This document shows, one piece after another, positions 2,228-58,967 of a DNA stretch of 64,000 nt. Each line of letters starts with the position of its first letter. Within the stretch, counting starts at the first letter, position 1. The position numbers and the translations under genes are program-made. This DNA comes from an uncultured Thermodesulfobacteriota bacterium (GTDB taxonomy: Bacteria > Desulfobacterota > DSWW01), in contig CAYLMK010000001.1 in assembly GCA_964384945.1 (NCBI GenBank), forward strand, positions 125,859-189,858, read 5' to 3'. Below the pieces are notes generated by a model, which worked only from the letters and a program-made list of their open reading frames with translations, was not told the origin of the DNA and made no database searches.

Positions 2228-3124
2228 TCAGGGAAGTTGTTCCTCCGGCTCGCCCGCGACGTAGGCGGCCCGGAGTCGGTATTCGGTGGTGTCCTGCCAA
2301 CTCTCCAGCACGAGGTTCACGGACTGCCCGCGGAGCGGCACGCATCGGCCGAGATCCAGCACCACCACGTCGTAGCCGGCGCCCGGATTCAGGGAGAGCA
2401 GGCTCTCCTCCTCGTCGCCGAGACCAACGATGAGATCTGCGTCCCCTTCCAGGCTCTCGAGGACGAACTCCATGGAGAGGGCGTCGTCGGGGACCTCGAG
2501 CGGGGGAAGGATCTCCGTGGCGCGGCCGTCCGGCGCATGGGGGTCCAGTACACCCTGCGCCTCGAGGATCACCCTGCCCTGGATGCCGTGAGACCGGCGG
2601 ACCGCAAGCCGCCAATCGGGTTCTTCCTCTCCGTTGCAGTGGACCGGCTCCCCGAGTGGGCTGATCAGGCTCACGAACCAGGGGCTGCCGGCCACACGGT
2701 CCTCCTCCCGGCTCTCTTCACTTACCAGGATCTTCTGGGTGCCTGCGCCCCTGCCGAAGGCGAAATAGCCCGGAGGCGGGTTCTCGGGCCCGAGGACGAG
2801 ATCCGCCTCGCCGGGGACCGCCTCGAGCCTGGCCTCCATCAAGGTCAGGTCGAACGGCGCGTTGAATCGGAAGGAAACCCTGCCCGTCTCGCCCTGGCTC
2901 GAGCTGTCCGCGAAGCAGCCCTCGACCTCGGGACACCCCGGGGAATCGGGGGGTGCTTCGGAGTTCGGGCACCAATCGTCCTTCGTCCCGGCGAGGGGGA
3001 CGAGAGGGAAGACCATCTCCGGCGGTATGTCCCCGGACGGACCCTTGTCCAGGCTGCAGCCGAGCCCGGAGAGGAGCGGAACGAGGAGTAGGGCGAGCGC
3101 CCTGCTTGCAGCGGTCCAGCGCAT
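2228..3124 (-). CDS. hypothetical lipoprotein (acidic, possible pre-peptidase C-terminal-like beta domain)
   Basis: Internal start MRWTAASRALALLLVPLLSGLGCS has a signal peptide and a lipobox (LSGLG-C). The upstream 71 aa of the track ORF are junk-like. Confidence 0.55.
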   Translation of the reverse strand: MRWTAASRALALLLVPLLSGLGCSLDKGPSGDIPPEMVFPLVPLAGTKDDWCPNSEAPPDSPGCPEVEGCFADSSSQGETGRVSFRFNAPFDLTLMEARLEAVPGEADLVLGPENPPPGYFAFGRGAGTQKILVSEESREEDRVAGSPWFVSLISPLGEPVHCNGEEEPDWRLAVRRSHGIQGRVILEAQGVLDPHAPDGRATEILPPLEVPDDALSMEFVLESLEGDADLIVGLGDEEESLLSLNPGAGYDVVVLDLGRCVPLRGQSVNLVLESWQDTTEYRLRAAYVAGEPEEQLP

Positions 3125-3248
3125 GGATCCTCTTGGGGTGGGGTTCACAGTAGGGTACTGGAATCCCCGAGGGGGTGTCAATGTCGAGGCATGCCGGTTG
3201 ACTCGTGTGGTTCCGATCGGCACCCTGTGTAGGCAACGCAAGACAACC

Positions 3249-3608
3249 ATGTTCGGAGGTCTCATCGTGGCCCAAGGCCAGGGGCGCTCCCGGAAGGGTC
3301 CGGAGCACATCGGATCGATCCTCGACTCGCTCTTCAAGCAGCAGGGGATCGAGGAGCCGATCCGGGTGCATCGCGCACTCCTGGACTGGGACCGGCTCGC
3401 CGGCCGGGACGTGGCCGGACACGCCAGGGCGGCCTACATCGAACACGGCACCCTGATCGTGGAGGTGGACAGCCCGGCCTGGATGCACCGGCTCCAGATG
3501 CAGGAGGGGGAACTGCGGGACCGGCTCAACCGGCACTTCGGAGAGGAGATCATCCGCCGGATCCGGTTCCGGCTCGGCTCGGGGGACGGGGACCCGGATT
3601 CCGGGTGA
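3249..3608 (+). CDS. DUF721 domain protein (DciA-like, Zn-ribbon/RNA-binding-like family)
   Basis: 119-aa product MFGGLIVAQG...IRVHRALLDWDRLAG...GTLIVEVDSPAWMHRLQMQ matches the DUF721 architecture. ATG at 3249. Confidence 0.6.
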   Translation: MFGGLIVAQGQGRSRKGPEHIGSILDSLFKQQGIEEPIRVHRALLDWDRLAGRDVAGHARAAYIEHGTLIVEVDSPAWMHRLQMQEGELRDRLNRHFGEEIIRRIRFRLGSGDGDPDSG

Positions 3609-3631: not shown

Positions 3632-4435
3632 TCAGAGCTCCCAGCGAAAGATGCGCTCCATCTCCTCCGTGTAGCCTCCCCGATCGGCTTCCACGAAAAG
3701 CGGCGCCTCGATTGCAAGCCCTTCCCTGCCGCGGCAGACCGCCTCCACCAGGACCCAGCTTGCCCCTTCCCCGGGCTTCGGATAGACGGGCCTCACGGTC
3801 TTGGGCTCGAGGCCGACCGCCCGCAGGCTCGCGACCAGGCCCGCAAAGCGGCCGGCCGGATAGACCAGGAAGGCCTTGCCCTTCTCCCGCAGAAGGTAGG
3901 CCGTCACACCGCACAGGTCCTCGAGGGAGGCGGCGATTTCGTGCCGGGCCAGGGCCCGCTGCGGATCCGGGTTCGTCCTTCCCGTTTGAAGGCGCCGGTA
4001 GGGAGGATTCGATGTGATCCAGTCAAAGGAGCCGCGGGAAAACCGCGAGGGGAGATCCTTCAGGTTCGCGCAGAGGATCCCGAAGCGGTCCTCGAGCCCG
4101 TTGAGCCGCAGGTTCCTCGCGGCCAGGTCTGCGAGCGCCTCCTGGACCTCCACCCCGTAGCCGGAGAGGCCTCTTCCCCATTTGGCAAGCAGGATGAGGA
4201 TCACGCCGCAGCCGGTTCCGATGTCCATGCAGCGGACGGGCCTGTCGGCCCGGGCAGGCCCCTGCAACCGGGCAACAAAGTGGGCCAGGACCACGGCATC
4301 CAGGGAAAACCGGTAGCCCCGCCGCTTCTGCAGGATATGCCCCCGGCCCACGAGGAGCGGCTCGAGCGTCTCGTCTTTCCTCCGCAGATCCTCCCGGAGC
4401 GCGGGGACAACCGGGGGGGGCCGGGCGTCTTCCAT
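3632..4435 (-). CDS. class I SAM-dependent methyltransferase, tRNA1(Val) (adenine37-N6)-methyltransferase-like (TrmN6/YfiC family)
   Basis: MDIGTGCGVILILLA SAM-binding motif plus the DWITSNPPY (NPPY) amino-methyltransferase motif. Its start overlaps the stop of the upstream polyferredoxin gene (TGATG). Confidence 0.65.
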   Translation of the reverse strand: MEDARPPPVVPALREDLRRKDETLEPLLVGRGHILQKRRGYRFSLDAVVLAHFVARLQGPARADRPVRCMDIGTGCGVILILLAKWGRGLSGYGVEVQEALADLAARNLRLNGLEDRFGILCANLKDLPSRFSRGSFDWITSNPPYRRLQTGRTNPDPQRALARHEIAASLEDLCGVTAYLLREKGKAFLVYPAGRFAGLVASLRAVGLEPKTVRPVYPKPGEGASWVLVEAVCRGREGLAIEAPLFVEADRGGYTEEMERIFRWEL

Positions 4436-6129
4436 CAGATCAGGCCCTCCCCCTGCTCCGGTGCGTCGCCCGTTCGCTCGGGCTCGGGCAGCTCGAGACG
4501 ATCCTCTTTCGGCTTGAGAAAGATCCGCTCCCGGTTCAGGGCTTCCTTGTAAGAGCCCTCCTTGAGACGGATCTCGCCCGCCGGGTAGACGACGATGGCG
4601 GCCTCACCGCTCACCGGACAGACGGCCTCGCACATCCCGCAGCCGTTGCACCGGCTCTCGTCCACGAAGGGGCGCTTGTGGCCCTCCACGGGCCGGAAGA
4701 CGATCGCATTGTACGGGCAGGCCTCGTCGCAAAGGAGACAGAGCCGGTCCTTTGCCCAGGCCACGCACGTTTCCCGGAGAATCACCGCCGTCCCGACCTT
4801 GGCGTGTTGTCTTTCGATCAACGGCAGGTTGCGGATGGCTCCGGTCGGACAGATCCTGCCGCAGAGGTTGCACTGCTGCTCGCATCCCGCGAAGCGCATC
4901 CTGTGGACCGGCGTGCCCCATCGGACCAGGCCCGTCTCCATGCCCGAGGCCTGGAGGGTGTGGGTCACGCAGATCCGAAGGCAGGCACCGCAACGGACGC
5001 AGGTCGCCAGGAAGTCCTCTTCCGGCAGAGACCCCGGGGGGCGAAGCGTCCGATCGGTCTTCTTCAGGACGCGCGGGTCGAGCCTCGAAAGCGCGATCCC
5101 CATGCTCCCAAGCCCCAGGCCGAAGAAGAAGTGCCTCCTGGACACGCCTTCGGGTATCGGCCGGTGCGCGGCAGCAGACGGCCGGGGCCGCAACGAAAAG
5201 GAGATCGCCTCCACCGGGCAGACGGCCTGGCAGGACTTGCACTGGATGCAGGCGGACGGTCTTGTCTCGAACGGGTCCTCTCCGATCGCCCCCATAGGAC
5301 AAACGTCCTGGCACCTGCCGCAGGACGTACATGCGGCCGCGACGCGTCTCCGTGCGGGGGCCAGCCGCCCGAGAAGCCCCAGCAGGGCTCCCAGGGGACA
5401 GATGCTCCTGCACCAGAACCTCCGCGTGAGCAGGCCCGGCATGAGAACCGCCGAGAGCAGGATCAGGTTCCCGACGGCTGCCTGGAAACCGGGTTGCGCG
5501 TATGCATGGTACGCGAGACCGTACCAGCCCATTTTCTCCGCCAGCGGCCGGAGGAGGCCGACCGTCCCGTTCGCCGCCCAGATTCCAAGGGGGTAGAAGA
5601 CGACGGCAAGACTTCGCGTGAGCAGCCCGATCGGGTCCAGGACGAGGGGAAGGCCGTTCCGGAGGGCGAGCCCGATCAGCACACAGCCCAAAAGGACCCA
5701 TTGGAGCCCCGCCGAGGCGAGACGCCCGCCCCTGCGTTCCGGCCCGTTCTCGGGGGAGGAAGTCTGCCTCTGCGGGTCCGGTCGCCGCCCGGGAGTCCCG
5801 CGCCGCTGCCCTGCGCTGCCCAGAACATGATCCACCGCATCGATGCAAAACCCCAGCGGGCAGACATAAGCGCAGAAGATCCTGCCCCAGACCATTCCCG
5901 CGACGATCATCGCCAGTGCGAGCCAGATGAACTGCCGGGTCCCGGTTAGGGCGGCGAGAGAGTGCAGAGGGTCCAGGTCGAGAAAGAGCCGATACGGTAT
6001 CCAGGACCGCCAGGGGTGATGCATGGCGACAAAGAGGAAAAGGAAGACGGCGAAGCTCAGCGACTGAAGGAGCCACTTTTTCCGGCGGCTGCCTCCCGGG
6101 AGGCTTGCTTCCGAGGCGACCCGCTTCAC
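4435..6129 (-). CDS. membrane polyferredoxin, NapH/MauN-family 4Fe-4S binding protein
   Basis: Two CxxxCP motifs (CAYVCPLG, CRSICPLG) in a TM region, then at least six CxxCxxCxxxCP ferredoxin motifs. GTG start at 6129 overlaps the DUF362 stop (GTGA) and has GAAAGGTG as RBS. The track N-terminal 211 aa were rejected. Confidence 0.7.
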   Translation of the reverse strand: MKRVASEASLPGGSRRKKWLLQSLSFAVFLFLFVAMHHPWRSWIPYRLFLDLDPLHSLAALTGTRQFIWLALAMIVAGMVWGRIFCAYVCPLGFCIDAVDHVLGSAGQRRGTPGRRPDPQRQTSSPENGPERRGGRLASAGLQWVLLGCVLIGLALRNGLPLVLDPIGLLTRSLAVVFYPLGIWAANGTVGLLRPLAEKMGWYGLAYHAYAQPGFQAAVGNLILLSAVLMPGLLTRRFWCRSICPLGALLGLLGRLAPARRRVAAACTSCGRCQDVCPMGAIGEDPFETRPSACIQCKSCQAVCPVEAISFSLRPRPSAAAHRPIPEGVSRRHFFFGLGLGSMGIALSRLDPRVLKKTDRTLRPPGSLPEEDFLATCVRCGACLRICVTHTLQASGMETGLVRWGTPVHRMRFAGCEQQCNLCGRICPTGAIRNLPLIERQHAKVGTAVILRETCVAWAKDRLCLLCDEACPYNAIVFRPVEGHKRPFVDESRCNGCGMCEAVCPVSGEAAIVVYPAGEIRLKEGSYKEALNRERIFLKPKEDRLELPEPERTGDAPEQGEGLI

Positions 6130-7061
6130 GATGCCGGCACCTTTCGGGAGACGATCTCGACGCGGTCGAGATCGATCTCTCCGACCCCCCTCCGGTGGCA
6201 GGCCACGATGTGCTGGACCTGTTCGGGAGCGACCCGTTTCCCGTACCAGTTCACTCGCTGGACACCGAACGCGTCCACGGCCACCGGATCCAGCCCCCCG
6301 ATGAGACAGCCCAATTCCTCCACAGGTCCGGGACCCAGGGGACCTCCGGCCGTCAGGACACGCGAGCCGTCGAGAATCGTCAGGTCGGCGCGGATCACGG
6401 TATTCAGGTCTCCGATCGCCTCGTTGAGATCCAGACGGCTGTGGAACACGGCCCGATCCCAGATCAGCCCCATGTTGCCCTTCGTGCCCAGGGAAACGGT
6501 GGTGGCCCCGTGCGACTTCATCCGGGGCAGGTTGATTCGCACGTGGGCGTCCAGCGCAGCCCCCAGGACCTTTACCGCATCCAGTTCCCCGCCCCCGGAC
6601 AGGGCGACCCGTCGGAACATCCCCTCCTGGGAGGCGCCGATAATATGAACATCCCGAAGGCCGCTCAGGGCCTCCTTCATCCGGGTCATCTCCAGGCAGA
6701 GGCTCACGGCTCGCATCGGGTGGTCCGCCACGAGCACCCGTTTCGCCCCGGCCTCCAGACAACGCCGGACCATCGCCCTGACAAGGCCCGGATCGGTGGT
6801 CGTGGCCAGCTCCGGGGGATTGGGGAAGCTCATGTTCGGCTTGATCAAGACCGTTTGGCCGGGCCTCACGAAGCGGCCGACACCGCCGAGTTCATCGAGC
6901 AAGAGATCCAGGGCCCGTTCGATCGGTCCCTGCACCTCCACCACGGAGGGCCTTGCTCGGCTTTCGGCCCGCCCGCTGGAAAGAAGGATCGAGGGAGAGC
7001 AGAGAGGCATGCACGAGGCGAGGGTGCCTTTCAGAAACGCCCTTCTCGAACAGGCTTTCAT
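6126..7061 (-). CDS. Tat-exported DUF362 domain protein
   Basis: Start MKACSRRAFLKGTLA carries a twin-arginine motif (SRRAFLK). DUF362-like body. Translationally coupled to the polyferredoxin downstream. Confidence 0.65.
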   Translation of the reverse strand: MKACSRRAFLKGTLASCMPLCSPSILLSSGRAESRARPSVVEVQGPIERALDLLLDELGGVGRFVRPGQTVLIKPNMSFPNPPELATTTDPGLVRAMVRRCLEAGAKRVLVADHPMRAVSLCLEMTRMKEALSGLRDVHIIGASQEGMFRRVALSGGGELDAVKVLGAALDAHVRINLPRMKSHGATTVSLGTKGNMGLIWDRAVFHSRLDLNEAIGDLNTVIRADLTILDGSRVLTAGGPLGPGPVEELGCLIGGLDPVAVDAFGVQRVNWYGKRVAPEQVQHIVACHRRGVGEIDLDRVEIVSRKVPAS

Positions 7062-7205
7062 GGCCCGACCCAACCCCGGTGGAAGAGACATCGAGGAAAC
7101 GGTTTCGAACGCGCGGATCTTCCCCCTCGTTCGAAGTGTATCGGGCCGGAGAAACCCATGTCAAACGGGGGGCGGGCCGGGAGACGGCGCCCTTGAGGGG
7201 ATGCC

Positions 7206-13139: not shown

Positions 13140-14084
13140 ATGGGTGGACGAAATTGTATTCAAAGGCTTGCCGGAGTGACGGCCGCATTGCTGTGCATTT
13201 TCGCAGGCACACCCGCGCTCCGGGCCGGATCCAAGGCGGCCGTCGTGGTCCGTGACAGGCTCTGCGTTCCGGGCGAGGAGACCACCATCGAGGCAACCCT
13301 CTATCGAGGCGGTCTCTTCGGCCTGTTCACGGAAGGCGTTCAGGGGGAGCTGCTTTGCTTTTTCGATCCTCAGGGGAATCCCCTCGACAATCGGCTCACC
13401 GACCCGTCCGGCTCCGCCAGAACCCGCTTCACGGTCGGCGCTGCCGGCCGATATACGGTGACGGTGCGTCTGGCCGACAACCCGCGCTATTCGGCCGAGC
13501 CTGCGGCAGGGCTCCTGTTCGTCCGGGAGAGAGAGACGCCCCTGCTCTTCGTCATGGTCGAGTCCGGCCTCATGCCCCGGATCTCGGCGCCGTGGCCCGT
13601 GAGGGACTTGAAGGAGATTGCGGCCGAGCCCAGCTCGGCGGAGGCGCTCTCCGAGGTCGCCGGATGCCGCGTGCTGGTCTACCTCACCCAGACTCCCAGG
13701 CCGTCGGCAGAGCGCGTGCGGTCCTGGCTGACAGACAGAGGCTATCCGCCGGGCCCCCTCGCATTCCTGGATCCTCCTGCCTGGATCGCCATGCTGTCCG
13801 AAGCCCCCGCGATGAAGACGACGGTGCTCGAATCCTTCTGGAAGGAGCGGTCCGTGCCCGCCCACCTGCTGACCCGCGACCGCGGCATGGCGGAGGCGGC
13901 CGCAGGCAAGGGTTTCCACGTGCTGCTCCTGGCGCCGGAAGCGCCGGCCGGCGAGGCGTCCCCGGAGCGGGGAAGGCAGGAAGACGAGCGGCGGGAAAAG
14001 GGGAAGGGGGAAAACATCGAATCCTTTGCGGACTGGTCGGCGCTCCCTGTGATCTGCCGCTGCAAGCCAGGGAAGAGCGGCTAG
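13140..14084 (+). CDS. secreted hypothetical protein (signal peptide; N-terminal beta-sandwich-like region)
   Basis: N-terminal signal peptide MGGRNCIQRLAGVTAALLCIFAGTPALRAG. No recognizable catalytic motif. Confidence 0.45.
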   Translation: MGGRNCIQRLAGVTAALLCIFAGTPALRAGSKAAVVVRDRLCVPGEETTIEATLYRGGLFGLFTEGVQGELLCFFDPQGNPLDNRLTDPSGSARTRFTVGAAGRYTVTVRLADNPRYSAEPAAGLLFVRERETPLLFVMVESGLMPRISAPWPVRDLKEIAAEPSSAEALSEVAGCRVLVYLTQTPRPSAERVRSWLTDRGYPPGPLAFLDPPAWIAMLSEAPAMKTTVLESFWKERSVPAHLLTRDRGMAEAAAGKGFHVLLLAPEAPAGEASPERGRQEDERREKGKGENIESFADWSALPVICRCKPGKSG

Positions 14085-17182: not shown

Positions 17183-19393
17183 TCAGGAAGCTTGATCGCA
17201 GGCTTGCGCGTCCGAGGTCACTGTAACCCCGAGGAGCAGCCCGCCGGAGGAGGAGGCGAATTCGAGAAGGTTCAGGGTGGCGTGGCCGGTCACCGAGACC
17301 GCTCCGACGCAGAGCCGGTCCCCTTCGCGGAGGGTCTCGCCCCTCAAATCCCATGCAAACGAGCCTGTCGCTGCGTCGAATGTCGGCTCTCCTCGAGGTT
17401 TTCCGTTCCACAGGGCCTTGATCTCGTTCAATTCGGAGACGTTCGCGTAGATCGTAGCCTGCAGGAGGAGGTCTTCCGGAGTGACAATCTGCCCGTTCTT
17501 CAGGTTGGACAGGATCACGTTCGGCCCTGTCGTCTCCTGCAAGGAGACCGCAATCTCGTAAGCCTCCTGCTCCGAGTCCGGGTCGACGTCGATCTCGAAC
17601 CCGGAGAACCTCGCCGTCGGTATTTCTTCTTCGTCCTCCACCTTTTCCTTCGCCAGCAGAACGCCGATCGTCTTGTAGGTCACGGAGGCGGGCTCGACCT
17701 CGATCCACTCCCAGGGGTTCTGCGGATACTCCCCCCCCGCATTCAGATCCACCCAATCGTCCGCTCTCTCCGGCGTGCCTTTGCCGCCCGTGAGGGGGTC
17801 GCAGGGGCAGCGCACGTCGTTGATCGGGGGTTCCTCCGCTGGACAGGCGCATCGGTAGGCGGAAAACGATGGCTGGCCCCTGTCGTCGGCGGCCCTGGCG
17901 CGGACCCGCAAGGTTTCGCCGAAAGGCAACTGGGCGTTCTGGTTCTTGTCGACTGCCGGGAAGATCTCCCGGATCTGAATCTGCGGGGCCTGATTCTCCT
18001 TCGTCGAAGGCAGGAACACGATGGGCACGTTCTTCTCTGTCTGGTTTCCCTGCACATCGAGGGCGAGGACCGACAGCGAGTTGGGTAGCCCTCCCGCCTC
18101 GTCCGGTTCGTCCACGATTCCGTCGCCGTCCCAGTCCGTCAAGAAGACAAGGGCTGCCAGAAAGTCTCCCTCCAGCGTGATCGTTTCCGGATCCAGAAGC
18201 AGAAACCGGCTCCTGCCGCCTTGCTCTCCCTCGGAAAGCCGCAGGAGCAGCGACCGCACCTCCCCGCTGAAGCTTTTGATGCTGCCCGTGATGTTCTCGG
18301 CTGCGTTCGAGGTCTCCACCCGGTCCTCGTCCTCTCCGGTCACTTCCAGCTCCGGCTGCCAGTCCAGCCTGTCGGGCGAGAAGGAGAATTGCCGGGCAAC
18401 CTGCGTCGAGCGAAACACCCCTGTCTTCTGATCGGGCACGTCTTCGGCGGAGACGGAATAGCGGTACAGCGCCGGTTCCTGTCCGCCGATCACCTCGCCC
18501 GATCCCTCGCTCCTCAACCTCGGATCGAAAACCTGGAATACCTCCGTAAAATTGCCGCTGGTCGCATCCCAGTCGAGGAAATCGTCGTCGTTCCACTTGA
18601 CCAGCGAACGCCAGAGAGCGGTCACCGAGTCGATCCCGTCTTCGCCGTCGCCCGCTCTGAGAAGGATCTGGAAAGAGCAAGGCTCCGCCTCTTCGGGGTC
18701 CCAGGAGAACGCATCCCCCGACCGCAACGTGTAGCATCCGGGCGAGGCGCCGCCTGCAGGGCAGTCCTGCGCAGGGCGGCCGGACGTGCTGCAGGCTGTC
18801 CTGTAATAAAGGGAATAGACAAGGCCGGGGTCCCCCTCGAGGCTGGTCACTCTCAAGATACGGTATTCGGCCCGGATCCGGATCGGATCCTCTTCCGATG
18901 CAGGGACGAGAATGTCCTGCGCCTCCGACACCCGCACCTCCACCTGGTTTTCCTCGCCATCGGCCGTCCCCAGAGAAAAAAGAAAACGGTCCCCGCGAAT
19001 CAGTCTCCGAGCCGCCAGCGAGGGCTCGCATTCGAAGAAGCCCCCCTCCGCCGCTTCGCAGCTCATTTGACATTCGAAGAAACCGTCCTCCGCGCCCGAG
19101 CACGACGAGAACCCCTGCCCACCGGCATCCTCACGCACGGCGGTCCAGACGATCCTCGGGTTGACGACGGCCGTGTTGTCCGTAATGTTTCCCTGGATGC
19201 GGACGGGCGATTGGGGTGCGACGCCCCCGTCTTCGAGGGAGACCCAAGCGCCGCCCGTCAGGCTGTCCCAGTAGGAAAGCCGCACGTTGGTGATTTGGGG
19301 AGCCTCCGGGTTTCCGCAGCCGCAGGAGAGGAGAAAAAGAAGCAAAAAGATCCGGGCCCTTGCGGCCGATCCCCCACGTTGTCTCGCTCGCAT
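17183..19393 (-). CDS. large acidic lipoprotein, hypothetical (thrombospondin type-3-like Ca-binding motif)
   Basis: Start MRARQRGG...IFLLLFLLSCGC has a lipoprotein signal (LLS-C). DWDGDGIVDEPDE motif and repeated GFFEC motifs. 737 aa. Confidence 0.55.
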   Translation of the reverse strand: MRARQRGGSAARARIFLLLFLLSCGCGNPEAPQITNVRLSYWDSLTGGAWVSLEDGGVAPQSPVRIQGNITDNTAVVNPRIVWTAVREDAGGQGFSSCSGAEDGFFECQMSCEAAEGGFFECEPSLAARRLIRGDRFLFSLGTADGEENQVEVRVSEAQDILVPASEEDPIRIRAEYRILRVTSLEGDPGLVYSLYYRTACSTSGRPAQDCPAGGASPGCYTLRSGDAFSWDPEEAEPCSFQILLRAGDGEDGIDSVTALWRSLVKWNDDDFLDWDATSGNFTEVFQVFDPRLRSEGSGEVIGGQEPALYRYSVSAEDVPDQKTGVFRSTQVARQFSFSPDRLDWQPELEVTGEDEDRVETSNAAENITGSIKSFSGEVRSLLLRLSEGEQGGRSRFLLLDPETITLEGDFLAALVFLTDWDGDGIVDEPDEAGGLPNSLSVLALDVQGNQTEKNVPIVFLPSTKENQAPQIQIREIFPAVDKNQNAQLPFGETLRVRARAADDRGQPSFSAYRCACPAEEPPINDVRCPCDPLTGGKGTPERADDWVDLNAGGEYPQNPWEWIEVEPASVTYKTIGVLLAKEKVEDEEEIPTARFSGFEIDVDPDSEQEAYEIAVSLQETTGPNVILSNLKNGQIVTPEDLLLQATIYANVSELNEIKALWNGKPRGEPTFDAATGSFAWDLRGETLREGDRLCVGAVSVTGHATLNLLEFASSSGGLLLGVTVTSDAQACDQAS

Positions 19394-19445
19394 CTCTCCC
19401 CCGTCTCCCCTTGGCCTGCAGGAAAGCCGATGCTCCCCGTGAGCC

Positions 19446-20783
19446 CTATCCTTCCCGCTCACGGATGGCATCGTAAAAAAGCGTATGCTCCGGCACGAAG
19501 ATCAGATCGACCGTTCCGACCGGTCCGTTTCGCTGCTTCCCGATGATGAGCTCCGCCTTTCCCCGGCATTCCGGTTTGTCCCGAAAATAGAATTCCTCAC
19601 GGTAGACGAAAGCAATCAGGTCCGCATCCTGTTCGATCGCACCCGACTCGCGCAGGTCGGCCAGCATCGGCCTCTTGTCCGGCCGGTTCTCCACCCCGCG
19701 GTTGAGCTGCGAAAGGGCCAGGACGGGAACGTTGAGCTCCTTCGCCAGCCGCTTCAGGGAACGGGAGATCTCCGATATTTCCTGAACACGATTCTCGAAC
19801 CTCCCGGACCCCTGCATGAGCTGCAGGTAATCGATGATGATGAGCTCGACTCCATGCTCCCGTCTCATCTGGCGCGCCTTGCCCCGCATTTCCGTCACAT
19901 GCATGCTCGGCGAATCGTCGATGAAGATCGGAGCCCTCGACAGGACGTCGGCGGCCTTGGTGAGCTTCGGAAAATCCGACTTCTTGATATAGCCGGAACG
20001 CAGCTTGGATCCGTCAACCCTCGCCTCGGCGCAGAGCAGCCGGGTGGCCAGTTGTTCCCGGGACATCTCCAGGGAGAAAATCGCAACCGGCAGCCCTTCC
20101 TTCAGGGCGACGTGGGAGGCGATATTCAGGGCAAGGGCCGTCTTGCCCATGCTCGGCCTGCCCGCAAGAATCACGAGGTCCGAGCGCTGCAATCCGGACG
20201 TCTTGTGATCGAAGTCCACGAAGCCGGTGCCGACACCGGAGAGCATTCCCTGTTTGTCGTAAAGTTTTTCGATCGACTGGAACGTCTCCTGCAGGACCGC
20301 CCGGAGGGGGACGAATCCCTGCCGCTGCTGGCTGCGGGAGACCTCCAGAATGGTCTGCTCCGCCCGGTCCAGGAAGGATACCGCGTCCTCGGGCTCCTCG
20401 TAGCCCTGCCGGGCGATCTCCGTGGCGGCCTCGATCAGCCGCCGCAGAACGGATTTCTCCTTGACGATCTTCGCATAATAGAGGATGTTGGCGGCCGTGG
20501 GAACCTCGTCCGCCAGGGAGGCGAGATAGACCGCACCGCCCACCTCCTGAAGCGAGCCCTTCCGATTCACTTCCTCGGTGAGCGTGATCAGGTCCACCGG
20601 GTGGTTCCGCTCCGAGAGGTCCACCATGGCCTGATAGATCTTCCGGTGCGCGTCCCGGTAGAAGTCCTCCTCGCGGAGAATCTCCACCACGTTGGGCATG
20701 GCCCGGTTCTCGAGCAGGATTCCCCCCAGGACCGAGCGTTCCGCCTCGAGGTTCTGTGGGGGAACCCGTTCCAGAAAGCCCAT
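19446..20783 (-). CDS. dnaB: replicative DNA helicase DnaB
   Basis: N-terminal DnaB domain, Walker A GRPSMGKTA, Walker B ELIIIDYLQLM, and the conserved rplI-dnaB context. Confidence 0.95.
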   Translation of the reverse strand: MGFLERVPPQNLEAERSVLGGILLENRAMPNVVEILREEDFYRDAHRKIYQAMVDLSERNHPVDLITLTEEVNRKGSLQEVGGAVYLASLADEVPTAANILYYAKIVKEKSVLRRLIEAATEIARQGYEEPEDAVSFLDRAEQTILEVSRSQQRQGFVPLRAVLQETFQSIEKLYDKQGMLSGVGTGFVDFDHKTSGLQRSDLVILAGRPSMGKTALALNIASHVALKEGLPVAIFSLEMSREQLATRLLCAEARVDGSKLRSGYIKKSDFPKLTKAADVLSRAPIFIDDSPSMHVTEMRGKARQMRREHGVELIIIDYLQLMQGSGRFENRVQEISEISRSLKRLAKELNVPVLALSQLNRGVENRPDKRPMLADLRESGAIEQDADLIAFVYREEFYFRDKPECRGKAELIIGKQRNGPVGTVDLIFVPEHTLFYDAIREREG

Positions 20784-28950: not shown

Positions 28951-29201
28951 CATAGGATCTTTCATCGGAATTGTCAACAAAAAATTCGCCGTCAAACCGT
29001 CCGAGCCCTTCCAGGAGGCCACGACAGGGCGCCGGGGTCCCCCGCGTTCCGAAGGGACCGAAGGATGGGCCCGCAGGTCCGGGCCTCCCGGCCGCCGTCA
29101 CACAGACCCCTCACCTTGCATTCCGGGGTCGGTATCCATATCATAGTGCTTCGCGCGGCCGGCTAAAACATCTTTTCCAATCCTTTGATTACGGACCGAC
29201 C

Positions 29202-31313
29202 ATGGACACGCGTTCTCCTGCGGAACCCCTGCGCTACCTGATCACGGGCGGAGGAACCGCCGGCCACGTCTACCCCGGGCTTGCACTGGCGGAAGGCATT
29301 CGGCGCCATGAGCCGGATGCCGAGTTTCTGTTCGTGGGGGCTCGAAGGGGCGCCGAAGAAAGGATCGTACCCGCACAAGGACATGCGCTCCAGACACTTG
29401 CGGTCAGGGGGATCCCGACCACGACGGGTCCCTTCCTGTGGTTGCAGACCATCTGGCGCCTCGGCGTATCCCTGCTGCAGGCAATCCGGCTGATCCTGCG
29501 GTTCAGGCCCCATGCAATCATCGGAACGGGCGGGTATGCGAGTGCGCCGGTGCTCCTGGCGGCCGTTGTCCTGCGAAGCGTCCGGCTTTGGAAGGGGGTT
29601 CTGAGCCTGCATGAGGCGAACATCATCCCGGGCAGGTTCAACCGGTGGATGTCGGGGTGGGCGGACTTCACGGGCACGAGTTTCCCGGAGACCCTCCGGT
29701 TCTTCTCGAAGAAGAATTCTTTCTGGACGGGCTACCCCCTGCGAAACGATCTGGAGGCGTCCTCGAAACGCAGAGGGCGGGACCGTGAGGAGCCCAAGAG
29801 GCGCCTGGGGATTCCCCCGGCGGGCGAGGTTCTTCTCGTTTTCGGGGGAAGCTCGGGGGCCCGGACCATCAACCGTGCCGTGTTCGAGGCGCTCCCAAGG
29901 CTCCTGCAGCGCGAGGGGCTCACCGTCTTTCACGCCACCGGACACCCGCAGGCGGCATACGACCCGGGGGCGGAATTCCGCGAACTGCTGCCCGGACTGC
30001 CGGTCGACGCGAATGTCGTGCAGTCGCGGTATCGCCGGGAGGAGTATCTGCATCATATCGAAGGCTATTACGAAGCGGCCGACATCGTGGTCTGCCGATC
30101 CGGTGCGGGCGCGATCTGGGAACTCGCCGCCTACGGCACGCCGTCGGTTCTCATACCGAAATCAAACCTGCCGGGGGACCATCAGGTCAAGAACGCCTAC
30201 TTCCTCGCACGCCGGGGACAGGCGCGCATTCTTTTCGAGAAACGACCCGTTCCGCCGGAGCCGGCGGGCTCGGAATCGGTCGATCCGGATGCCTTTGCGG
30301 ACGCCGTTCTGTCGATGCTCGACCGAAAAGGCGGCCCCGAGGATCGCAAGAAGGGCACGCCGGCGCAATCGGAGATCCCTTCCGGGAAGGATCTCTTCTA
30401 CGCTCTTATCCGGCGTTTCCGGGAACGGGGGCGGGCCGAGCCGCCGATCCCGCAGGCAACGGCGGGCCCCGGATGGCGCGAGGAAAAGCCCGGCAGCACC
30501 GCGGCCCGCACCGGGATCGAGTGGATCGGCGCCGAGGCGCTTCTCACCCGTCTGGAGGACGACCGGAAACATAAGCGAGAGCTGCCTGAGGAGGAAAGGG
30601 CATATCTGAAATACAAGACCGATCAACTGCTCGCCTCGCCCCGCTGGCAGGACAGAAACGCGGGGGTCAAGCTCGTCGGAGTCATCGGCTACCGGGAGAG
30701 ACTCCCCACGTTGCTCTACATGGTCACGGACCGCACCCCGGCGGCCTGGCACCGGAGGCTGCTGGGCGGGGACTTTGAACAGGTGGGATTCATACGACGC
30801 AATGCACTGCAGGCCGTATGGCGGCTTCGCACGTGCGGTCCCGCCGTCAGGGAGGCCCTGCGAATCGCCCTGCGGGACCCTTATTACGAGGTGCGGTCCT
30901 GGGCGGCCCGCGCGATCGAAAGGCTTTCCCCGGAGATCGGGGAGGACGAGGAGATGGTTCGCCTGCTGCGAAGGAACCTGAAGGACCGCTGGTTCGAGGT
31001 GGTCGTATCCTCGCTGAGGGCCCTGGCCATGATCACGAAGGATCCGAACATCCTCTCCGACCTGATCCCCCTTCTCAGCCACAAGAACTGGAAGGTGCAG
31101 CAGGCGACGGTCCGCTGCCTGACGAGGCTCATGCAGGCCGATGTCATCCGTCTGTCGAAAGAGGCGGAGGAATGGGTCAACAAGATCCCGATGAAGGGGC
31201 TGGACTTCTTCCCAAGCTTCCCGCTCAAGCAGACCTGGGAAGACTTCCAGCGTGTGCTCTCCGAGAAGGCGGCATGCGAGAGGCCGCCGGAAACGAACAA
31301 GGGGGCCTGCTGA
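29202..31313 (+). CDS. murG: MurG (GT28 UDP-GlcNAc:lipid I transferase) fused to a C-terminal HEAT-repeat domain
   Basis: ITGGGTAGHVYPGLALAEG N-motif and SGAGAIWELAAYGTPSVLIP...HQVKNA C-motif of MurG. Followed by about 250 aa with HEAT/PBS-lyase-like repeats (YYEVRSWAARAIERL, WFEVVVSSLRALAMI, NWKVQQATVRCLTRL). The track N-terminal 77 aa were rejected. Confidence 0.75.
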   Translation: MDTRSPAEPLRYLITGGGTAGHVYPGLALAEGIRRHEPDAEFLFVGARRGAEERIVPAQGHALQTLAVRGIPTTTGPFLWLQTIWRLGVSLLQAIRLILRFRPHAIIGTGGYASAPVLLAAVVLRSVRLWKGVLSLHEANIIPGRFNRWMSGWADFTGTSFPETLRFFSKKNSFWTGYPLRNDLEASSKRRGRDREEPKRRLGIPPAGEVLLVFGGSSGARTINRAVFEALPRLLQREGLTVFHATGHPQAAYDPGAEFRELLPGLPVDANVVQSRYRREEYLHHIEGYYEAADIVVCRSGAGAIWELAAYGTPSVLIPKSNLPGDHQVKNAYFLARRGQARILFEKRPVPPEPAGSESVDPDAFADAVLSMLDRKGGPEDRKKGTPAQSEIPSGKDLFYALIRRFRERGRAEPPIPQATAGPGWREEKPGSTAARTGIEWIGAEALLTRLEDDRKHKRELPEEERAYLKYKTDQLLASPRWQDRNAGVKLVGVIGYRERLPTLLYMVTDRTPAAWHRRLLGGDFEQVGFIRRNALQAVWRLRTCGPAVREALRIALRDPYYEVRSWAARAIERLSPEIGEDEEMVRLLRRNLKDRWFEVVVSSLRALAMITKDPNILSDLIPLLSHKNWKVQQATVRCLTRLMQADVIRLSKEAEEWVNKIPMKGLDFFPSFPLKQTWEDFQRVLSEKAACERPPETNKGAC

Positions 31314-37732: not shown

Positions 37733-38203
37733 TCAACCCGGTACCTTTCCGGGGCGCCACGGCAGTCCGATCCTGTCCCCCCCCTTCCGAATCAGGACGA
37801 GGGCCGCGACGAGCAGGAGGATGTCTTCGGCGAGAAGCTTGAGGCCGACCCTCCTGCCTCCCTGCGTGTTGAAACAGCCGCATTCGATGTCCAGCCCGCG
37901 AACGAGCGTGATGCTCACCGCGACGATGAACACGCAAAGAAGAAAGGCGGACACGAGCGCGGCCGACCGCACCCACTGCCCGAACAGGAGCAGCAACCCG
38001 CACAGACACTCGACCCAGGGGAGGGTCACCGCGACGAGGTTTACGAGGAGTTCCGGCAACAGCCCGTAATTGTCGATCGCTCGCGCGAAATCGTCCGGAC
38101 GAAGGATCTTGTCGAAACCGTACAGGAGAAACACGAGGCCCAGAAGAATCCGGGCGGCGGCCTCCATCACCCGATCTCTTCCTATATTCCGGCCGATCGT
38201 CAT
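37733..38203 (-). CDS. DoxX/MauE family membrane protein
   Basis: Four predicted TM helices and a Cys-containing loop (CGCF), typical of MauE/DoxX. Confidence 0.65.
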   Translation of the reverse strand: MTIGRNIGRDRVMEAAARILLGLVFLLYGFDKILRPDDFARAIDNYGLLPELLVNLVAVTLPWVECLCGLLLLFGQWVRSAALVSAFLLCVFIVAVSITLVRGLDIECGCFNTQGGRRVGLKLLAEDILLLVAALVLIRKGGDRIGLPWRPGKVPG

Positions 38204-38206
38204 GGT

Positions 38207-38773
38207 TCACCCTCCATCCGGACCCGTGTCGCTCCGGCTCGAAGAGGTCTGCCCCCCGCCCTTCGTCTTCTTTCCCTTCGGCGAATCCCCTTCGGCCGGA
38301 TACCCCGCCTCCCTCCACTTCTCCCAACCGCCCCAGAAGACCTTCACCTGCGTGTAGCCTTCTTCTTTCAGCAATTCGGCCACATCCCGGCTCGTCTCGC
38401 AGCTTCCTCCGCCGCAGTAGGTAACCAGAAGGGTGTCGAACGGGATGAGCGTCGTCCAGGAGGAGAGGGCCTCTTCGAAATCTTCCTTCGGCAGCAGGAG
38501 CGCCCCCGGGATATGGCCGGCGGCGAATTCCTCTGCGGAGCGGGCATCGACGAAGATAGCCTTCCGCTCCCTGTGCAGGACCCAGACTTCATCCAGCCCG
38601 ACTTCCTCGATCCCCTTCGTGTCCGGCCTCGGGACCGGCCCGAGCAGGCCCAGGCCGCGGGGAGAGAGGGCGTTGGAGAGCACCCCGAGCAGGGCGCCGG
38701 TCAGAACGATCAGAAAACCCCGCCTTGCAGATGCAGCAAAGGCAGGAATGTCAAGAAACAATCGACCGCTCAA
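38207..38773 (-). CDS. membrane-anchored rhodanese-like (sulfurtransferase) domain protein
   Basis: N-terminal TM anchor. Rhodanese active-site loop YCGGGSCETS (catalytic Cys). Confidence 0.75.
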   Translation of the reverse strand: MSGRLFLDIPAFAASARRGFLIVLTGALLGVLSNALSPRGLGLLGPVPRPDTKGIEEVGLDEVWVLHRERKAIFVDARSAEEFAAGHIPGALLLPKEDFEEALSSWTTLIPFDTLLVTYCGGGSCETSRDVAELLKEEGYTQVKVFWGGWEKWREAGYPAEGDSPKGKKTKGGGQTSSSRSDTGPDGG

Positions 38774-43193: not shown

Positions 43194-43718
43194 GTGAGAA
43201 AGGCCGTCCATCCTTCCCGGCAAGCAAGCGTGTCGTATCGGCCCTGGAACAGGGGCGACATTCCTCACCTGGCCCGGTTGGCGCGGGAACTGTATGCCTA
43301 CATCGAGTCGATCGATCCGGTCTGGAGGACCTCCCCGGGCGCGGAGGACCACCTGCGGGTTCATCTGACGGACCTGTTCATGACCCGGCACGCCATATCC
43401 TTCGTTGCCTGCGAAGGGAACGAAATCGTCGGCTTCATCACCGGCAGCATCACCCAGCGGCCGGCCGTCATCCTGCCGCGAAGGGACGGCCTCGTGGACA
43501 ACGCCTACGTGAAGCCTTCGTGGAGAAGACGCGGGATCGGAAGCCGGCTCTGCAGGATGATGCTGGAATGGTTCGCGGAGCAGGAGGTCGAGGAGGTCCG
43601 GATTCACTATCAGGTAAGCAACCCGGATGCGGTCCGCTTCTGGGAAGGGCTCGGATTCCGCCCGTGGACGATCCAGGCCCATCTCCGGCTGACGGGGGAG
43701 AGCCCGCCGAAGCCCTGA
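43194..43718 (+). CDS. GNAT family N-acetyltransferase
   Basis: Acetyl-CoA binding motif A (VKPSWRRRGIGSRL). GTG start. A candidate promoter with extended -10 TGgTATGAT lies upstream. Confidence 0.75.
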   Translation: MRKAVHPSRQASVSYRPWNRGDIPHLARLARELYAYIESIDPVWRTSPGAEDHLRVHLTDLFMTRHAISFVACEGNEIVGFITGSITQRPAVILPRRDGLVDNAYVKPSWRRRGIGSRLCRMMLEWFAEQEVEEVRIHYQVSNPDAVRFWEGLGFRPWTIQAHLRLTGESPPKP

Positions 43719-44776
43719 GGCCCGTCCGTTCGCAGAGAGGCGGGTGCGCCGTAGAAGCGGACGGTGTACCGGGCGGGCAGAGAACCCAGTTCCAGGACCT
43801 CCTTGAGACCCTCTTCGACCCAGACCGTTCCGTCCTCATCGACAAGCACCCCTTTTGCGCCCGGGAATCGATGCAGCAGGTCGATCCCGCCCTGCCTTCC
43901 GCCCACCATGACCGCCGTGGCCAAGGCATCGGCAAGGGAAGAGTCCTCGGCAACCACCGTGACGCTGAGGAGGCCTTGCACGGGCCGCCCCGTCCTGGGG
44001 TCCACGATGTGGGCGAACCTGCCCTCTTTCGTTTTGAAGTAGCGCTCATAGGTGCCCGAGGTCACCACCGCACCTTCCCGCAGGGAGAAGAACCCGAGGA
44101 GGCCTCCCTTGTCGAGAGGGTCCTGGAGCCCGATACGCCAGGGAGGGCTTTCGGGCCCGCCCGAGGCTCGAATGTCTCCTCCCGCATTGACCAGCGCCTC
44201 CCTGATTCCGCCGCCGTTCACCCAGGCCATCCCCCGGTCGACGATGTAGCCCTTCGCAATCCCCCCCAGGTCGATTCGCATCCCCTCCTTCTCGAGAAAG
44301 ACCGTCTTGGCCTTCCGGTCGACACGGACGCGCTCGTACCCGACGCGGTCCAGCGCGTCCCGGACGGCCTGATCCCCCGGCACCCGGCCGCCTCCTTCCC
44401 GCTGGATGTCTCCCCAGGCGGCCTCGACCGGTCCGACCGTCACATCAAAGGCGCCTCCCGTAATCCCGGAGACGGTCAGGGACTTCTCGATCACCTCCAG
44501 AAGATCGTCGGAGACCTGCACCGGCGCCTTGCCGGCGGCCTCATTGATCTTCACGAGTTCGGAGGAGGGATCGTACAGACTCATCCGCGCGGCGAGCGCA
44601 TCCATCCGGTTCAGGGCGGAGCGGACCGTCTCGGCCTCATCCTCCCCTCCGCGGGTCCGCCACACGATTTCGACGAGGGTGCCCATCATGGGCCGCGTGA
44701 CGCGCCGGACGCTCTCCTGGAGCGGCGGCCTCGGAGCGCAACCGGTGAACAGGCTCAACCCCATCAGGAACAGCAT
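43610..44776 (-). CDS. apbE: FAD:protein FMN transferase (ApbE family lipoprotein)
   Basis: Lipobox LFTGC. ApbE motifs (GGIAKGY, TSGTYER, DALATA). Start uncertain: ATG at 44776 or upstream as far as 44986. The 3' end overlaps the convergent GNAT gene. Confidence 0.7.
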   Translation of the reverse strand: MLFLMGLSLFTGCAPRPPLQESVRRVTRPMMGTLVEIVWRTRGGEDEAETVRSALNRMDALAARMSLYDPSSELVKINEAAGKAPVQVSDDLLEVIEKSLTVSGITGGAFDVTVGPVEAAWGDIQREGGGRVPGDQAVRDALDRVGYERVRVDRKAKTVFLEKEGMRIDLGGIAKGYIVDRGMAWVNGGGIREALVNAGGDIRASGGPESPPWRIGLQDPLDKGGLLGFFSLREGAVVTSGTYERYFKTKEGRFAHIVDPRTGRPVQGLLSVTVVAEDSSLADALATAVMVGGRQGGIDLLHRFPGAKGVLVDEDGTVWVEEGLKEVLELGSLPARYTVRFYGAPASLRTDGPQGFGGLSPVSRRWAWIVHGRNPSPSQKRTASGLLT

Positions 44777-44963
44777 CAGGACGATCGCGCCGCATGCGTC
44801 GGCGCCTGAACGGAAGAGTTCGTACGCGACCGCAACGGCTCTCGTGCGCTTCGCGGCGGAGAAATCCCCGTGCACCCGTCGCAAGCGGTCCCGCTCGGGG
44901 GCCGAGGAAGGCCAGGGGAGGAACGCGGAGAGTCGACCGCAGGTTGCGCCGAACGATCCTTCT

Positions 44964-45794: not shown

Positions 45795-45817
45795 CGCGGA
45801 ATCCCTCTCGCCGCGTT

Positions 45818-47095: not shown

Positions 47096-47278
47096 CGACG
47101 CCCTTCCTCCTCTTGCGATGTGCTCATCCCGTTGCAACTCCGAGGTGCGAAAGAAAACTATTATATTCCCCCGTGCCACGGCGCGCAAGCACTCCCGGTT
47201 TCGTATCCGGAGGATATGCGGTAGACTCCTTGAGAGTCTCGTCCGGTTCGGCGGCCCTCGTACCCGGGAGGATTCGTC

Positions 47279-58632: not shown

Positions 58633-58871
58633 CGAACCCCCTCCGGAGACGGCGCCTTGACGCCGGGTATGGGCTTTCTTGACGCTCGAAGCGGCCGAGC
58701 AATCGGTCGCAAAGCATTGGCGAGCCAACAGAGCGGGTCCGATTATACGGGAGCGGCGAGCGAAGGGTCAACGCGTTTGCGCGAGGCCAAGACGGCCTCC
58801 GGTCCTTTTTGTACAGTCAAAAACCTCTTGTTTTTTCGCTGGTTGGATACGGAGGGGCGGGGCCGTTCCGT

Positions 58872-58900: not shown

Positions 58901-58967
58901 GCCTGCTGTCCCGGCCGCCTTTGCGGATCAGGCTCGAGCAACCCATTCCACAGGAAGAACCCCTGCC

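Follow-up and report, generated by a model that had tools for sequence, protein, structure and literature searches.

A predicted Tat-exported DUF362 protein and a dual Sec/Tat-type membrane polyferredoxin are encoded by a conserved, translationally coupled gene pair

The 64,000-nucleotide stretch of contig CAYLMK010000001.1 analyzed here (hereafter the window) comes from an uncultured Thermodesulfobacteriota bacterium and carries, on its minus strand at positions 3632-7061, three overlapping genes encoding a protein of the DUF362 family (PF04015), a membrane polyferredoxin and an S-adenosylmethionine (SAM)-dependent methyltransferase. The first two of these genes constitute a widespread, translationally coupled two-gene module that is found in several phyla, and their products probably act together as a conserved two-protein redox module of the periplasm. 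An initial annotation made from the sequence alone had proposed an uncharacterised periplasm-facing electron-transfer module at this locus, and this remains the best reading, as the pair is conserved, coupled and retains its twin-arginine translocation (Tat) signal. The methyltransferase, on the other hand, is a lineage-specific passenger.

Results

The DUF362 and polyferredoxin genes are linked across genomes and metagenomes

The linkage of the two genes was followed in both directions. A genome collection was scanned with an alignment of the closer DUF362 homologues (80 loci), and metagenomes were scanned with a polyferredoxin alignment (80 loci, 66 of which have at least 1 kb of upstream sequence and could be assessed). 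Among the genome loci, a polyferredoxin gene lies directly downstream of the DUF362 gene and on the same strand in 76 of 80. The linked loci are labelled Thermodesulfobacteriota (Syntrophaceae, Desulfarculaceae), NC10, Zixibacteria, Gemmatimonadota, WOR-3 and Eisenbacteria, while a single KSB1 locus (L057) is among the four that have no downstream polyferredoxin; in another of the four, L039, the sequence stops about 110 nt past DUF362. An identical 4-nt ATGA/GTGA overlap joins the two genes in 65 of the 76 linked loci, and since it recurs in so many independent loci, the coupling goes far beyond chance. The pair is retained where DUF362 identity has fallen to 29-33% (P0092, P0102, which is labelled Myxococcales, and P0104). 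It is not retained in a remote, 390-residue type of DUF362, which adjoins a rubredoxin.

Starting from the polyferredoxin, a DUF362 gene was found in 58 of the 66 assessable metagenome loci: directly upstream (within 400 nt) in 51, in reversed order in 4 and with an intervening gene in 3. At L101, L123, L140, L149, L151, L155 and L160, there is no DUF362 gene within ~3.5 kb of the polyferredoxin gene. L137 is a further locus without a visible DUF362 gene, and its contig stops ~250 nt past the polyferredoxin. At the seven loci named first, the polyferredoxin may serve other clients.

Gene-neighbourhood conservation, which the initial annotation had named as a check on its three-gene arrangement, thus divides the locus in two: the DUF362-polyferredoxin pair is conserved in both scans, and the methyltransferase is not (see below).

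The DUF362 protein has a conserved Tat signal and a set of invariant polar residues

A hidden Markov model scan upheld the DUF362 identity of the protein, with a match to PF04015 (E=1.5e-39; 136.6 bits against a gathering cutoff of 24) that spans profile positions 1-199 of 200. The family is large, comprising ~4,900 cluster representatives at 50% identity. Membership in the NCBIfam 'Npun_F2552 family' was considered and rejected (68 bits against a cutoff of 500).

The N-terminus of the protein (MKACSRRAFLKG) contains the motif SRRAFLK, which fits the Tat consensus S/T-R-R-x-F-L-K; between this motif and the folded domain lies an h-region of moderate hydrophobicity, and cleavage of the signal is possible between GRA and E. 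The arginine pair is invariant across 19 aligned homologues, with identity down to 29%, and it occurs in 95 of 103 full-length homologues as well as in 113 of 120 full-length cluster representatives taken from the 150 best hits of an exhaustive search. The eight exceptions among the 103 are mostly distant homologues lacking a signal, and four of them are ferredoxin-domain fusions. The AlphaFold2 model (predicted local distance difference test, pLDDT, of 90.8) shows disorder over residues 17-34 (pLDDT <50), and the folded domain opens with a strand that begins at residue 39. On this evidence, the Tat signal is genuine and not an artefact of the choice of start codon. The initial annotation had also called an export signal on a DUF362 protein unusual; within this clade, the arginine pair is the rule.

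Other interpretations of the N-terminus were tried. An upstream start at ATG 7091 was ruled out, since the homologues are 311 residues long and start at MK-x-x-SRR, and so was a lipoprotein reading of L14-A-S-C17 (LASC), as the Cys varies among homologues (P0011, P0026). The NCBI call for an identical protein (P0001) has 272 residues and begins at a downstream GTG ('VVEVQG'), by which the Tat signal is lost, and 17 of 120 homologue entries likewise begin too late. Gene callers thus often start DUF362 late and drop its export signal, and the periplasmic location is therefore hidden.

The residues that are invariant in the Tat clade are K74-P-N76, T89, D113, K182, H184, K194, R203, H207, D231, G240-P241, D258 and D263, and those between K182 and H207 form a candidate cofactor or active site. 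Most of the invariant residues are also present in the cytoplasmic ferredoxin-fused DUF362 proteins that were examined: K182, K194 and H207 in all of them, H184 in all but one, and either Arg or Lys at position 203. As members with fused 4Fe-4S ferredoxin domains exist (P0114-P0116 and P0119) and share the residues of the motif, the DUF362 domain is recurrently paired with Fe-S relays.

The polyferredoxin is a predicted NapH-NapG fusion of the dual Sec/Tat family

From its N-terminus, the polyferredoxin consists of a positively charged segment, four strongly hydrophobic helices, Fe-S motifs, a twin-arginine motif with a fifth transmembrane domain (TMD5) and four more Cys motifs. Its topology was inferred from the positive-inside rule and from publications on NapH that PMC5449189 cites. 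In an alignment of 65 polyferredoxin sequences, each of the 28 motif cysteines is 100% conserved, and R331 and R332 of the twin-arginine motif are conserved in 98% and 100%, respectively. The stretch that contains TMD5 reads S-R331-R332-HFFFGLGLGSMGIAL, and it is the least hydrophobic of the helices, with a mean Kyte-Doolittle value of 1.0 vs. 1.84-1.96 for TMD1-4. The protein is more than the NapH-like protein of the initial annotation. The CxxxCP motifs reported there are present, twice, and what did not hold is the restriction to NapH: the architecture is predicted to be that of a NapH-NapG fusion with an internal arginine pair before TMD5 and six [4Fe-4S] motifs, two of them cytoplasmic and four periplasmic.

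Both halves of this architecture are recognized by NCBIfam models at scores far from their cutoffs. NapH (NF007013) matches residues 218-314 in part (E=9e-23; 80.8 bits against a cutoff of 234), while NapG matches residues 342-527 (E=4e-27), with 94.9 bits against 269 for NF007012 and 87.8 against 178.85 for TIGR00397. The NapG-like domain is homologous to NapG/MauM, yet the protein is not an equivalog. napA, napB and napC are found neither in the window nor among the recurrent neighbours of the related loci.

A polytopic polyferredoxin has been characterised before as a fusion of NapH and NapG (PMC5449189). Using reporter fusions, Tooke et al. 2017 (eLife) found that it needs the general secretory (Sec) pathway for TMD1-4 and the Tat pathway for TMD5, a hand-over that was explained by the low hydrophobicity of TMD5 and the positive charges that follow it (PMC5449189). 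That study deals with membrane insertion only; it gives neither a partner nor a function, and DUF362 does not appear in it. Among the hosts of polyferredoxin homologues it lists Anaerolinea thermolimosa and Anaeroarcus burkinensis. No later functional work on the dual Sec/Tat polyferredoxin was found in the literature searched. We compared the window protein with residues 1-364 of Q1NSB0 (delta proteobacterium MLMS-1), as given in the supplementary file of PMC5449189. The two are 32% identical over residues 45-314 (E=7e-22), and a sister polyferredoxin, encoded downstream of a Tat-signal DUF362 at L081, is 46% identical to Q1NSB0 over a region that includes the arginine pair and TMD5 (E=6e-73). 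By these similarities, the window polyferredoxin is assigned to the dual Sec/Tat family of Tooke et al. 2017.

The window protein also contains an insertion, GSAGQRRGTPGRRPDPQRQTSSPENGPERRGGRL, at residues ~104-137 (~5719-5820, minus strand). It is of low complexity, rich in Arg, Pro, Gly and Gln, and predicted to lie in a cytoplasmic loop; it is confined to the closest relatives, and most homologues are without it.

The DUF362 model resembles the N-domain of LarA

A Foldseek search with the DUF362 model returned 18 LarA entries (E 3e-7 to 9e-5), and the LarA superfamily is its sole significant structural match (PDB 5HUQ, 9EIA, 7S91, 9Q3J and 4NAR). DUF362 and LarA have been placed in the same Pfam clan, CL0471 (PMC11770544). 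As a search of the PDB with the DUF362 profile by sequence gave no relative, the link to LarA rests on the comparison of folds. A Pfam scan of the protein returned PF04015 only, with no match to Lar_N (DUF2088).

To compare residues, profile-profile alignments were made by hhalign with a LarA sequence validated against 5HUQ. The 19-sequence DUF362 profile places MKSH184...GTK194 on IESH174...GRK184 of LarA at a non-significant E=0.26. Against the LarA N-domain alone, the alignment is collinear over 204 columns, again without significance (E=0.079), and sets H184, K194 and H207 on LarA H174 (catalytic), K184 (tether) and H200 (Ni ligand). With a deeper profile and full-length LarA, another weak local alignment, to the LarA C-domain, wins. 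LarA His108 falls opposite Met116, a residue that is not conserved in DUF362, so that only one of the two catalytic histidines has a counterpart; some LarA homologues have a single His (PMC12611868). In LarA, the N-domain binds the cofactor, nickel-pincer nucleotide (NPN), and the C-domain binds the substrate (PMC12611868), and DUF362 corresponds to the N-domain only. We regard the equivalence of the His, Lys and His residues as a lead and not as a result.

Accessory genes accompany the pair in some lineages

In ~19-22 of the related loci, the pair is preceded by genes for a secreted DUF6599 protein and an aldo-keto reductase with a Tat signal; these loci are mostly labelled Syntrophaceae or unclassified Deltaproteobacteria/Thermodesulfobacteriota. 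The aldo-keto reductase gene lies directly 5' of the DUF362-polyferredoxin pair in ~19 loci, and its product has a C-terminal domain with eight cysteines that resembles 2x[4Fe-4S]. A periplasmic aldo-keto reductase would not be expected to have access to NAD(P)H. The protein matches NphT (PDB 9YEB; E=2e-8), which is its best PDB match in the region of the motif: the segments GIT-T-H194 and GM-K245-AIRGG align on T142/H144 and K200 of NphT, which are ligands of the nickel-pincer nucleotide NPMN, and both the His and the Lys are conserved across 14 sequences. NphT itself is an NPMN-dependent aldo-keto reductase (Semersky et al. 2026; PMC13524815).

Other arrangements occur as well. DUF6599 directly precedes and overlaps DUF362 in a Myxococcales-labelled locus (L083:4800-6008), and loci from Zixibacteria, Gemmatimonadota and WOR-3 (L040, L054 and L069) contain tandem copies of DUF362 and DUF6599. 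A beta-propeller protein of ~1,300-1,400 residues (PorZ_N/Reg_prop-like) is encoded 3' of the polyferredoxin in L054, L069 and L080 (Gemmatimonadota, WOR-3). The window was searched for DUF6599, the Tat-exported aldo-keto reductase, the beta-propeller protein and second copies of the module, and has none of them.

Gene boundaries and operon signals

The initial annotation of three minus-strand genes that overlap from start to stop proved exact to the base, as did its GTGA overlap, while the TGATG that it had placed near 4435 is at 4433-4437. The features of the locus are collected in Table 1.

Table 1. Features of the DUF362-polyferredoxin locus (window positions) and location of the aldo-keto reductase genes in related loci.
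Feature	Position	Strand	Description
DUF362 gene	6126-7061	minus	ATG 7061, TGA 6128-6126; 311 residues; presumed catalytic subunit, Tat-exported (predicted), LarA-like fold
Twin-arginine signal peptide (predicted), DUF362 residues 1-38	6948-7061	minus	SRRAFLK, residues 5-11, at 7029-7049
Motif K182-x-H184-x9-K194-x8-R203-x3-H207	6441-6518	minus	candidate cofactor/active site; invariant in the 19-sequence and closer-set alignments
GTGA overlap	6126-6129	minus	DUF362 stop / polyferredoxin GTG start; translational coupling
Polyferredoxin gene	4435-6129	minus	GTG 6129-6127, TGA 4437-4435; 564 residues, polytopic; NapH-like membrane part and NapG-like periplasmic part (predicted)
First CxxxCP, C86-P91	5857-5874	minus	cytoplasmic end of TMD2 (predicted); 100% conserved in 65 sequences
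Second CxxxCP, C240-P245	5395-5412	minus	cytoplasmic end of TMD4 (predicted); 100% conserved in 65 sequences
Two CxxCxxCxxxCP, C267-P278 and C294-P305	5215-5331	minus	predicted cytoplasmic 2x[4Fe-4S]; Pfam Fer4 families, 100% Cys conservation
Internal twin-arginine motif and TMD5, S330-RRHFFFGLGLGSMGIAL-S348	5086-5142	minus	followed by 6 Lys/Arg in 24 residues
Four NapG/MauM-like Cys motifs, C377-C387, C416-P428, C455-P472 and C494-P505	4615-5001	minus	predicted periplasmic 4x[4Fe-4S]
TGATG overlap	4433-4437	minus	polyferredoxin stop shares 1 nt with methyltransferase ATG
Methyltransferase gene	3632-4435	minus	ATG 4435-4433, stop 3634-3632; 267 residues, class I SAM
Candidate sigma-70-like promoter, TTGACA-18-TACACT	7135-7164	minus	10/12 consensus matches; candidate by consensus match alone
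Aldo-keto reductase genes of related loci	L013, L018, L041, L042 (e.g. L042:618-1823), L044, L053, L056, L060, L064, L070, L071, L073, L075, L079 and others		Tat-signal

The candidate promoter lies in a 217-bp divergent intergenic region that the operon has in common with dksA, in which two sigma-70-like sites were observed vs. 0.3 expected. An AAGGTG stands 8 nt 5' of the polyferredoxin GTG, and a Shine-Dalgarno sequence, GGAGG, precedes the ATG of the methyltransferase. No terminator-like site above the chance level was found between the three genes.

The methyltransferase is found in the closest relatives only

The initial annotation had identified the third gene as encoding a SAM methyltransferase with an NPPY motif, and this identity stands. 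NPPY occupies residues 143-146 (3998-4009), SAM motif I (DIGTGCG) occupies residues 71-77, and the protein matches Pfam MTS. Lacking a signal peptide, it is predicted to be a cytoplasmic class I SAM enzyme. Its best PDB match, 3lpm, is full-length (residues 21-263; E=1.2e-32) and COG4123/TrmN6-like, while the scores for the equivalog models of TrmN (NF047853; 42.8 bits against 350) and PrmC/HemK (TIGR03534; 56.8 bits against 199.1) are below their cutoffs.

The six closest loci (L001-L005 and L007; DUF362 at least 67% identical) are the only ones in which a methyltransferase homologue follows the pair. In these loci, the whole block is syntenic, comprising PriA-GT2-RR-DksA upstream, DUF362-polyferredoxin-methyltransferase, and DciA-unknown-cNMP-DsbA downstream. 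Even here, 1.4-1.7 kb separate the polyferredoxin from the methyltransferase in L005 and L007, and the TGATG junction is conserved only among the closest relatives. As its occurrence is confined to loci in which the entire region is syntenic, the methyltransferase is a lineage-specific passenger: probably a housekeeping enzyme of the tRNA/rRNA-modifying type that shares the transcription unit in this lineage only.

Other features of the window

Several observations concern genes elsewhere in the window. At 58809-61196 (plus strand), a single 795-residue open reading frame (ORF) joins a complete sigma-54 activator (receiver, AAA+, lid and a Fis-type helix-turn-helix, 'EKEYLLYHIKKNEGDLKTTAKALHMDPRRLARKADKLGL') in frame to a full LpxC (residues 521-788). 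There is no stop between the two parts; a linker, SKPEASKPV, is followed by LRQRTL...GLHSG, and the ORF is either a real fusion or the product of a lost stop codon. The ORF at 28971-31313 (plus strand; 780 residues as listed) combines a MurG-like glycosyltransferase (GT28 N and C domains) with HEAT repeats at the C-terminus.

Two groups of genes have redox-related annotations. A MauE/DoxX-family membrane protein adjoins a rhodanese-domain protein at 37733-38773 (minus strand), apparently as a small sulfur/thiol-redox pair. An ApbE flavin transferase (458 residues) is encoded near a 741-residue protein with TPR repeats and a C-terminal AhpC/TSA-thioredoxin-like domain at 43610-48043 (minus strand), and these are envelope-redox candidates. 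Finally, the ORFs at 2228-3337 (minus), 13140-14084 (plus), 17183-19471 (minus) and 61952-62845 (minus) show a good codon-position GC signal and no Pfam match; in the close relatives, the 369-residue ORF at 2228-3337 is conserved (38-52% identity) as part of the syntenic block.

Discussion

A proposed periplasmic redox module

Taken together, the conservation of the gene pair, its translational coupling and its export signals make it probable that DUF362 and the polyferredoxin operate as one periplasmic redox module. DUF362 would fold and, as we infer, acquire a cofactor in the cytoplasm before its export by Tat. Helices 1-4 of the polyferredoxin, i.e. the NapH-like part with two CxxxCP motifs and two cytoplasmic [4Fe-4S] clusters, would be inserted by Sec, whereas the weakly hydrophobic TMD5 and the NapG-like domain with four [4Fe-4S] clusters would be delivered to the periplasmic side by Tat. 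The 4-nt start/stop overlap would lead to a roughly 1:1 synthesis of the two proteins. DUF362 would then dock on the periplasmic Fe-S domain, which would wire the site formed by K182, H184, K194, R203 and H207 to the quinone pool at the CxxxCP region and/or, through the two cytoplasmic clusters, to cytoplasmic carriers, with electrons moving to or from them. Of these steps, export, assembly of the complex, transfer of electrons and coupling to quinone are all predicted. Export is favoured by the arginine pairs, which are invariant or near-invariant in both proteins, and the properties of TMD5 in the window protein fit the experimentally derived rule for the Sec-to-Tat hand-over (PMC5449189).

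Several points weigh against this proposal. The partnership is not absolute, since 7 of the 66 metagenome polyferredoxin loci have no DUF362 and three DUF362 loci (L057, from KSB1, L077 and L078) have no polyferredoxin, a large beta-propeller protein being encoded in its place directly after DUF362. A quinol dehydrogenase activity is extrapolated, because NapH and NapG match only in part, at scores that fall far short of the equivalog cutoffs. The neighbourhoods are heterogeneous and housekeeping-like, with DksA, DciA and PriA in the window and ClpB, LolA and FtsK in L081, and they give no clue to a substrate. In addition, no functional or experimental study of DUF362, COG2006 or PF04015 was found in the literature searched, in line with the statement of the initial annotation that the family has no established function. 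The housekeeping-type contexts are compatible with a role in envelope maintenance, by analogy with MsrPQ.

Alternative explanations

The same locus could be read in other ways, of which the least credible takes all three genes as one functional unit in which the methyltransferase modifies DUF362, the polyferredoxin or their substrate. The TGATG overlap, the GGAGG before the methyltransferase ATG, the lack of an above-chance terminator-like site between the genes and the retention of the arrangement in L001-L004 speak for such a unit, but the methyltransferase is missing within 8 kb in the other 74 of the 80 genome loci, none of the 80 metagenome loci has it, and it is a cytoplasmic protein by prediction whose full-length relatives are COG4123/TrmN6-like. 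Where it is present, its adjacency carries no specific signal, because the whole 10-gene neighbourhood is syntenic there. The synteny analysis thus largely refutes a three-gene functional unit, which was the reading of the operon implicit in the initial annotation. It is also improbable, if less so, that DUF362 is not an enzyme at all but a biogenesis or stability factor for the polyferredoxin, such as a periplasmic chaperone, an Fe-S cap or a co-exported escort. Near-obligate pairing and translational coupling would suit an assembly partner equally well, and the gene context offers no substrate clue that would favour an enzyme. On the other hand, the dense set of invariant polar residues (K74, N76, T89, D113, K182, H184, K194, R203, H207, D231, D258 and D263) is of the kind usually seen at an active or cofactor site, and most of the invariant residues are common to cytoplasmic DUF362 proteins that have their own ferredoxin domains and no such polyferredoxin. 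The LarA fold is enzyme-like, and L040, L054 and L069 encode tandem DUF362 paralogues with one polyferredoxin, which likewise argues against an assembly factor.

A more specific idea, which refines the redox module and does not contradict it, is that DUF362 is a nickel-pincer nucleotide (NPN/NPMN) enzyme, a 'half-LarA' that consists of the cofactor-binding domain. The cofactor would be tethered to K194, with the Ni completed by H207, and it would be loaded before Tat export and exchange electrons with the polyferredoxin. We consider this tentative and, on balance, unlikely. It draws on the common Pfam clan of DUF362 and LarA (PMC11770544), on the 204-column alignment, with which the short local alignment agrees on the register of the His and Lys, and on the fact that the N-domain of LarA is the one that binds NPN (PMC12611868). 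Tat export would suit a cofactor loaded in the cytoplasm, and ~19 related loci have the Tat-signal aldo-keto reductase with the NphT motif directly upstream, an enzyme that would not be expected to find NAD(P)H in the periplasm. That gene is not in the window, however, and the LarA alignments are not significant (E=0.08-0.26), full-length LarA prefers another alignment and LarA His108 is opposite a non-conserved Met. Moreover, larB, larC and larE are absent from the window by Pfam annotation of ~50 genes, as well as from the recurrent neighbours of the related loci, and it is not obvious how hydride chemistry on NPN would fit with one-electron Fe-S relays.

Significance

Of the elements of the proposed redox module, the polyferredoxin family and the logic of NapGH are already known. 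In no paper that we found are DUF362 as a client, its near-obligate coupling to the polyferredoxin, the exported LarA-type fold or the NphT-like periplasmic aldo-keto reductase described. The dual Sec/Tat polyferredoxin has served as a model of membrane-protein biogenesis, and the 2017 paper gives neither a physiological role nor a partner for it (PMC5449189). The pairing would give the polyferredoxin a client, and it would give DUF362 a cellular location and a redox context.

Nickel-pincer enzyme families beyond LarA have only recently been found (PMC13524815). Doubtful as it is, DUF362 could represent an unrecognised class of them: a stand-alone LarA-type domain, exported by Tat with a cofactor tethered to K194 and wired to the quinone pool via the polyferredoxin, to which some lineages may add a secreted DUF6599 protein and an NphT-like aldo-keto reductase that bears Fe-S and is exported by Tat. 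If so, it would be the first extracytoplasmic nickel-pincer enzyme and the first on an electron-transport chain, carrying out net redox chemistry instead of internal hydride shuttling, and the nickel-pincer cofactor would be attributed to the DUF362 family as a whole, the cytoplasmic ferredoxin fusions among them.

Comparison with known systems

The proteins of the locus and its relatives can each be set beside a characterised counterpart. The window methyltransferase has full-length similarity to TrmN6/YfiC (COG4123; 3lpm and 7wm5), including SAM motif I and NPPY, and differs in scoring below the NCBIfam cutoff for TrmN equivalogs. The aldo-keto reductase of ~19 related loci shares the His/Lys cofactor motif of NphT and may bind NPMN; NphT, however, has neither the Tat signal nor the C-terminal 8-Cys domain. 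DUF362 has the fold of the LarA superfamily, and its invariant His, Lys and His are collinear with LarA H174, K184 and H200 in a weak alignment. It is shorter (~270 residues, ~272 in the mature form, vs. ~424 in LarA) and does not have the C-terminal substrate-binding domain. LarA enzymes are cytoplasmic and redox-neutral overall, whereas DUF362 is predicted to be exported and is paired with Fe-S proteins.

At the level of the whole module, MsrPQ (YedYZ; Sco3746 in the fused form) offers an analogy only, as its cofactors are haem b and the molybdenum cofactor and its folds are unrelated. It likewise joins a membrane electron donor, either by fusion or as a separate protein, to a periplasmic catalytic subunit that is exported by Tat (PMC5449189), and occurs in housekeeping-type gene contexts, as DUF362-polyferredoxin does. 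In the NapGH of E. coli and Wolinella, NapH has four TMDs, two CxxxCP motifs and two cytoplasmic [4Fe-4S] clusters, NapG is a Tat-exported 4x[4Fe-4S] protein, and the two serve a periplasmic enzyme (PMC5449189). These parts are separate chains there and a single fused chain in the window polyferredoxin, and the client of the proposed module would be DUF362, which is neither a molybdoenzyme nor a cytochrome. The closest counterpart is the polyferredoxin of Tooke et al. 2017 (Q1NSB0). PMC5449189 counts three cytoplasmic clusters, whereas the window protein has two canonical motifs and two CxxxCP, along with the lineage-specific Arg/Pro/Gly-rich insertion in its TMD2-TMD3 loop. By prediction, the two proteins otherwise share five TMDs, a NapH-like part with cytoplasmic Fe-S clusters, an arginine pair before a weakly hydrophobic TMD5, positive charges after TMD5 and a NapG-like periplasmic domain with 4x[4Fe-4S].

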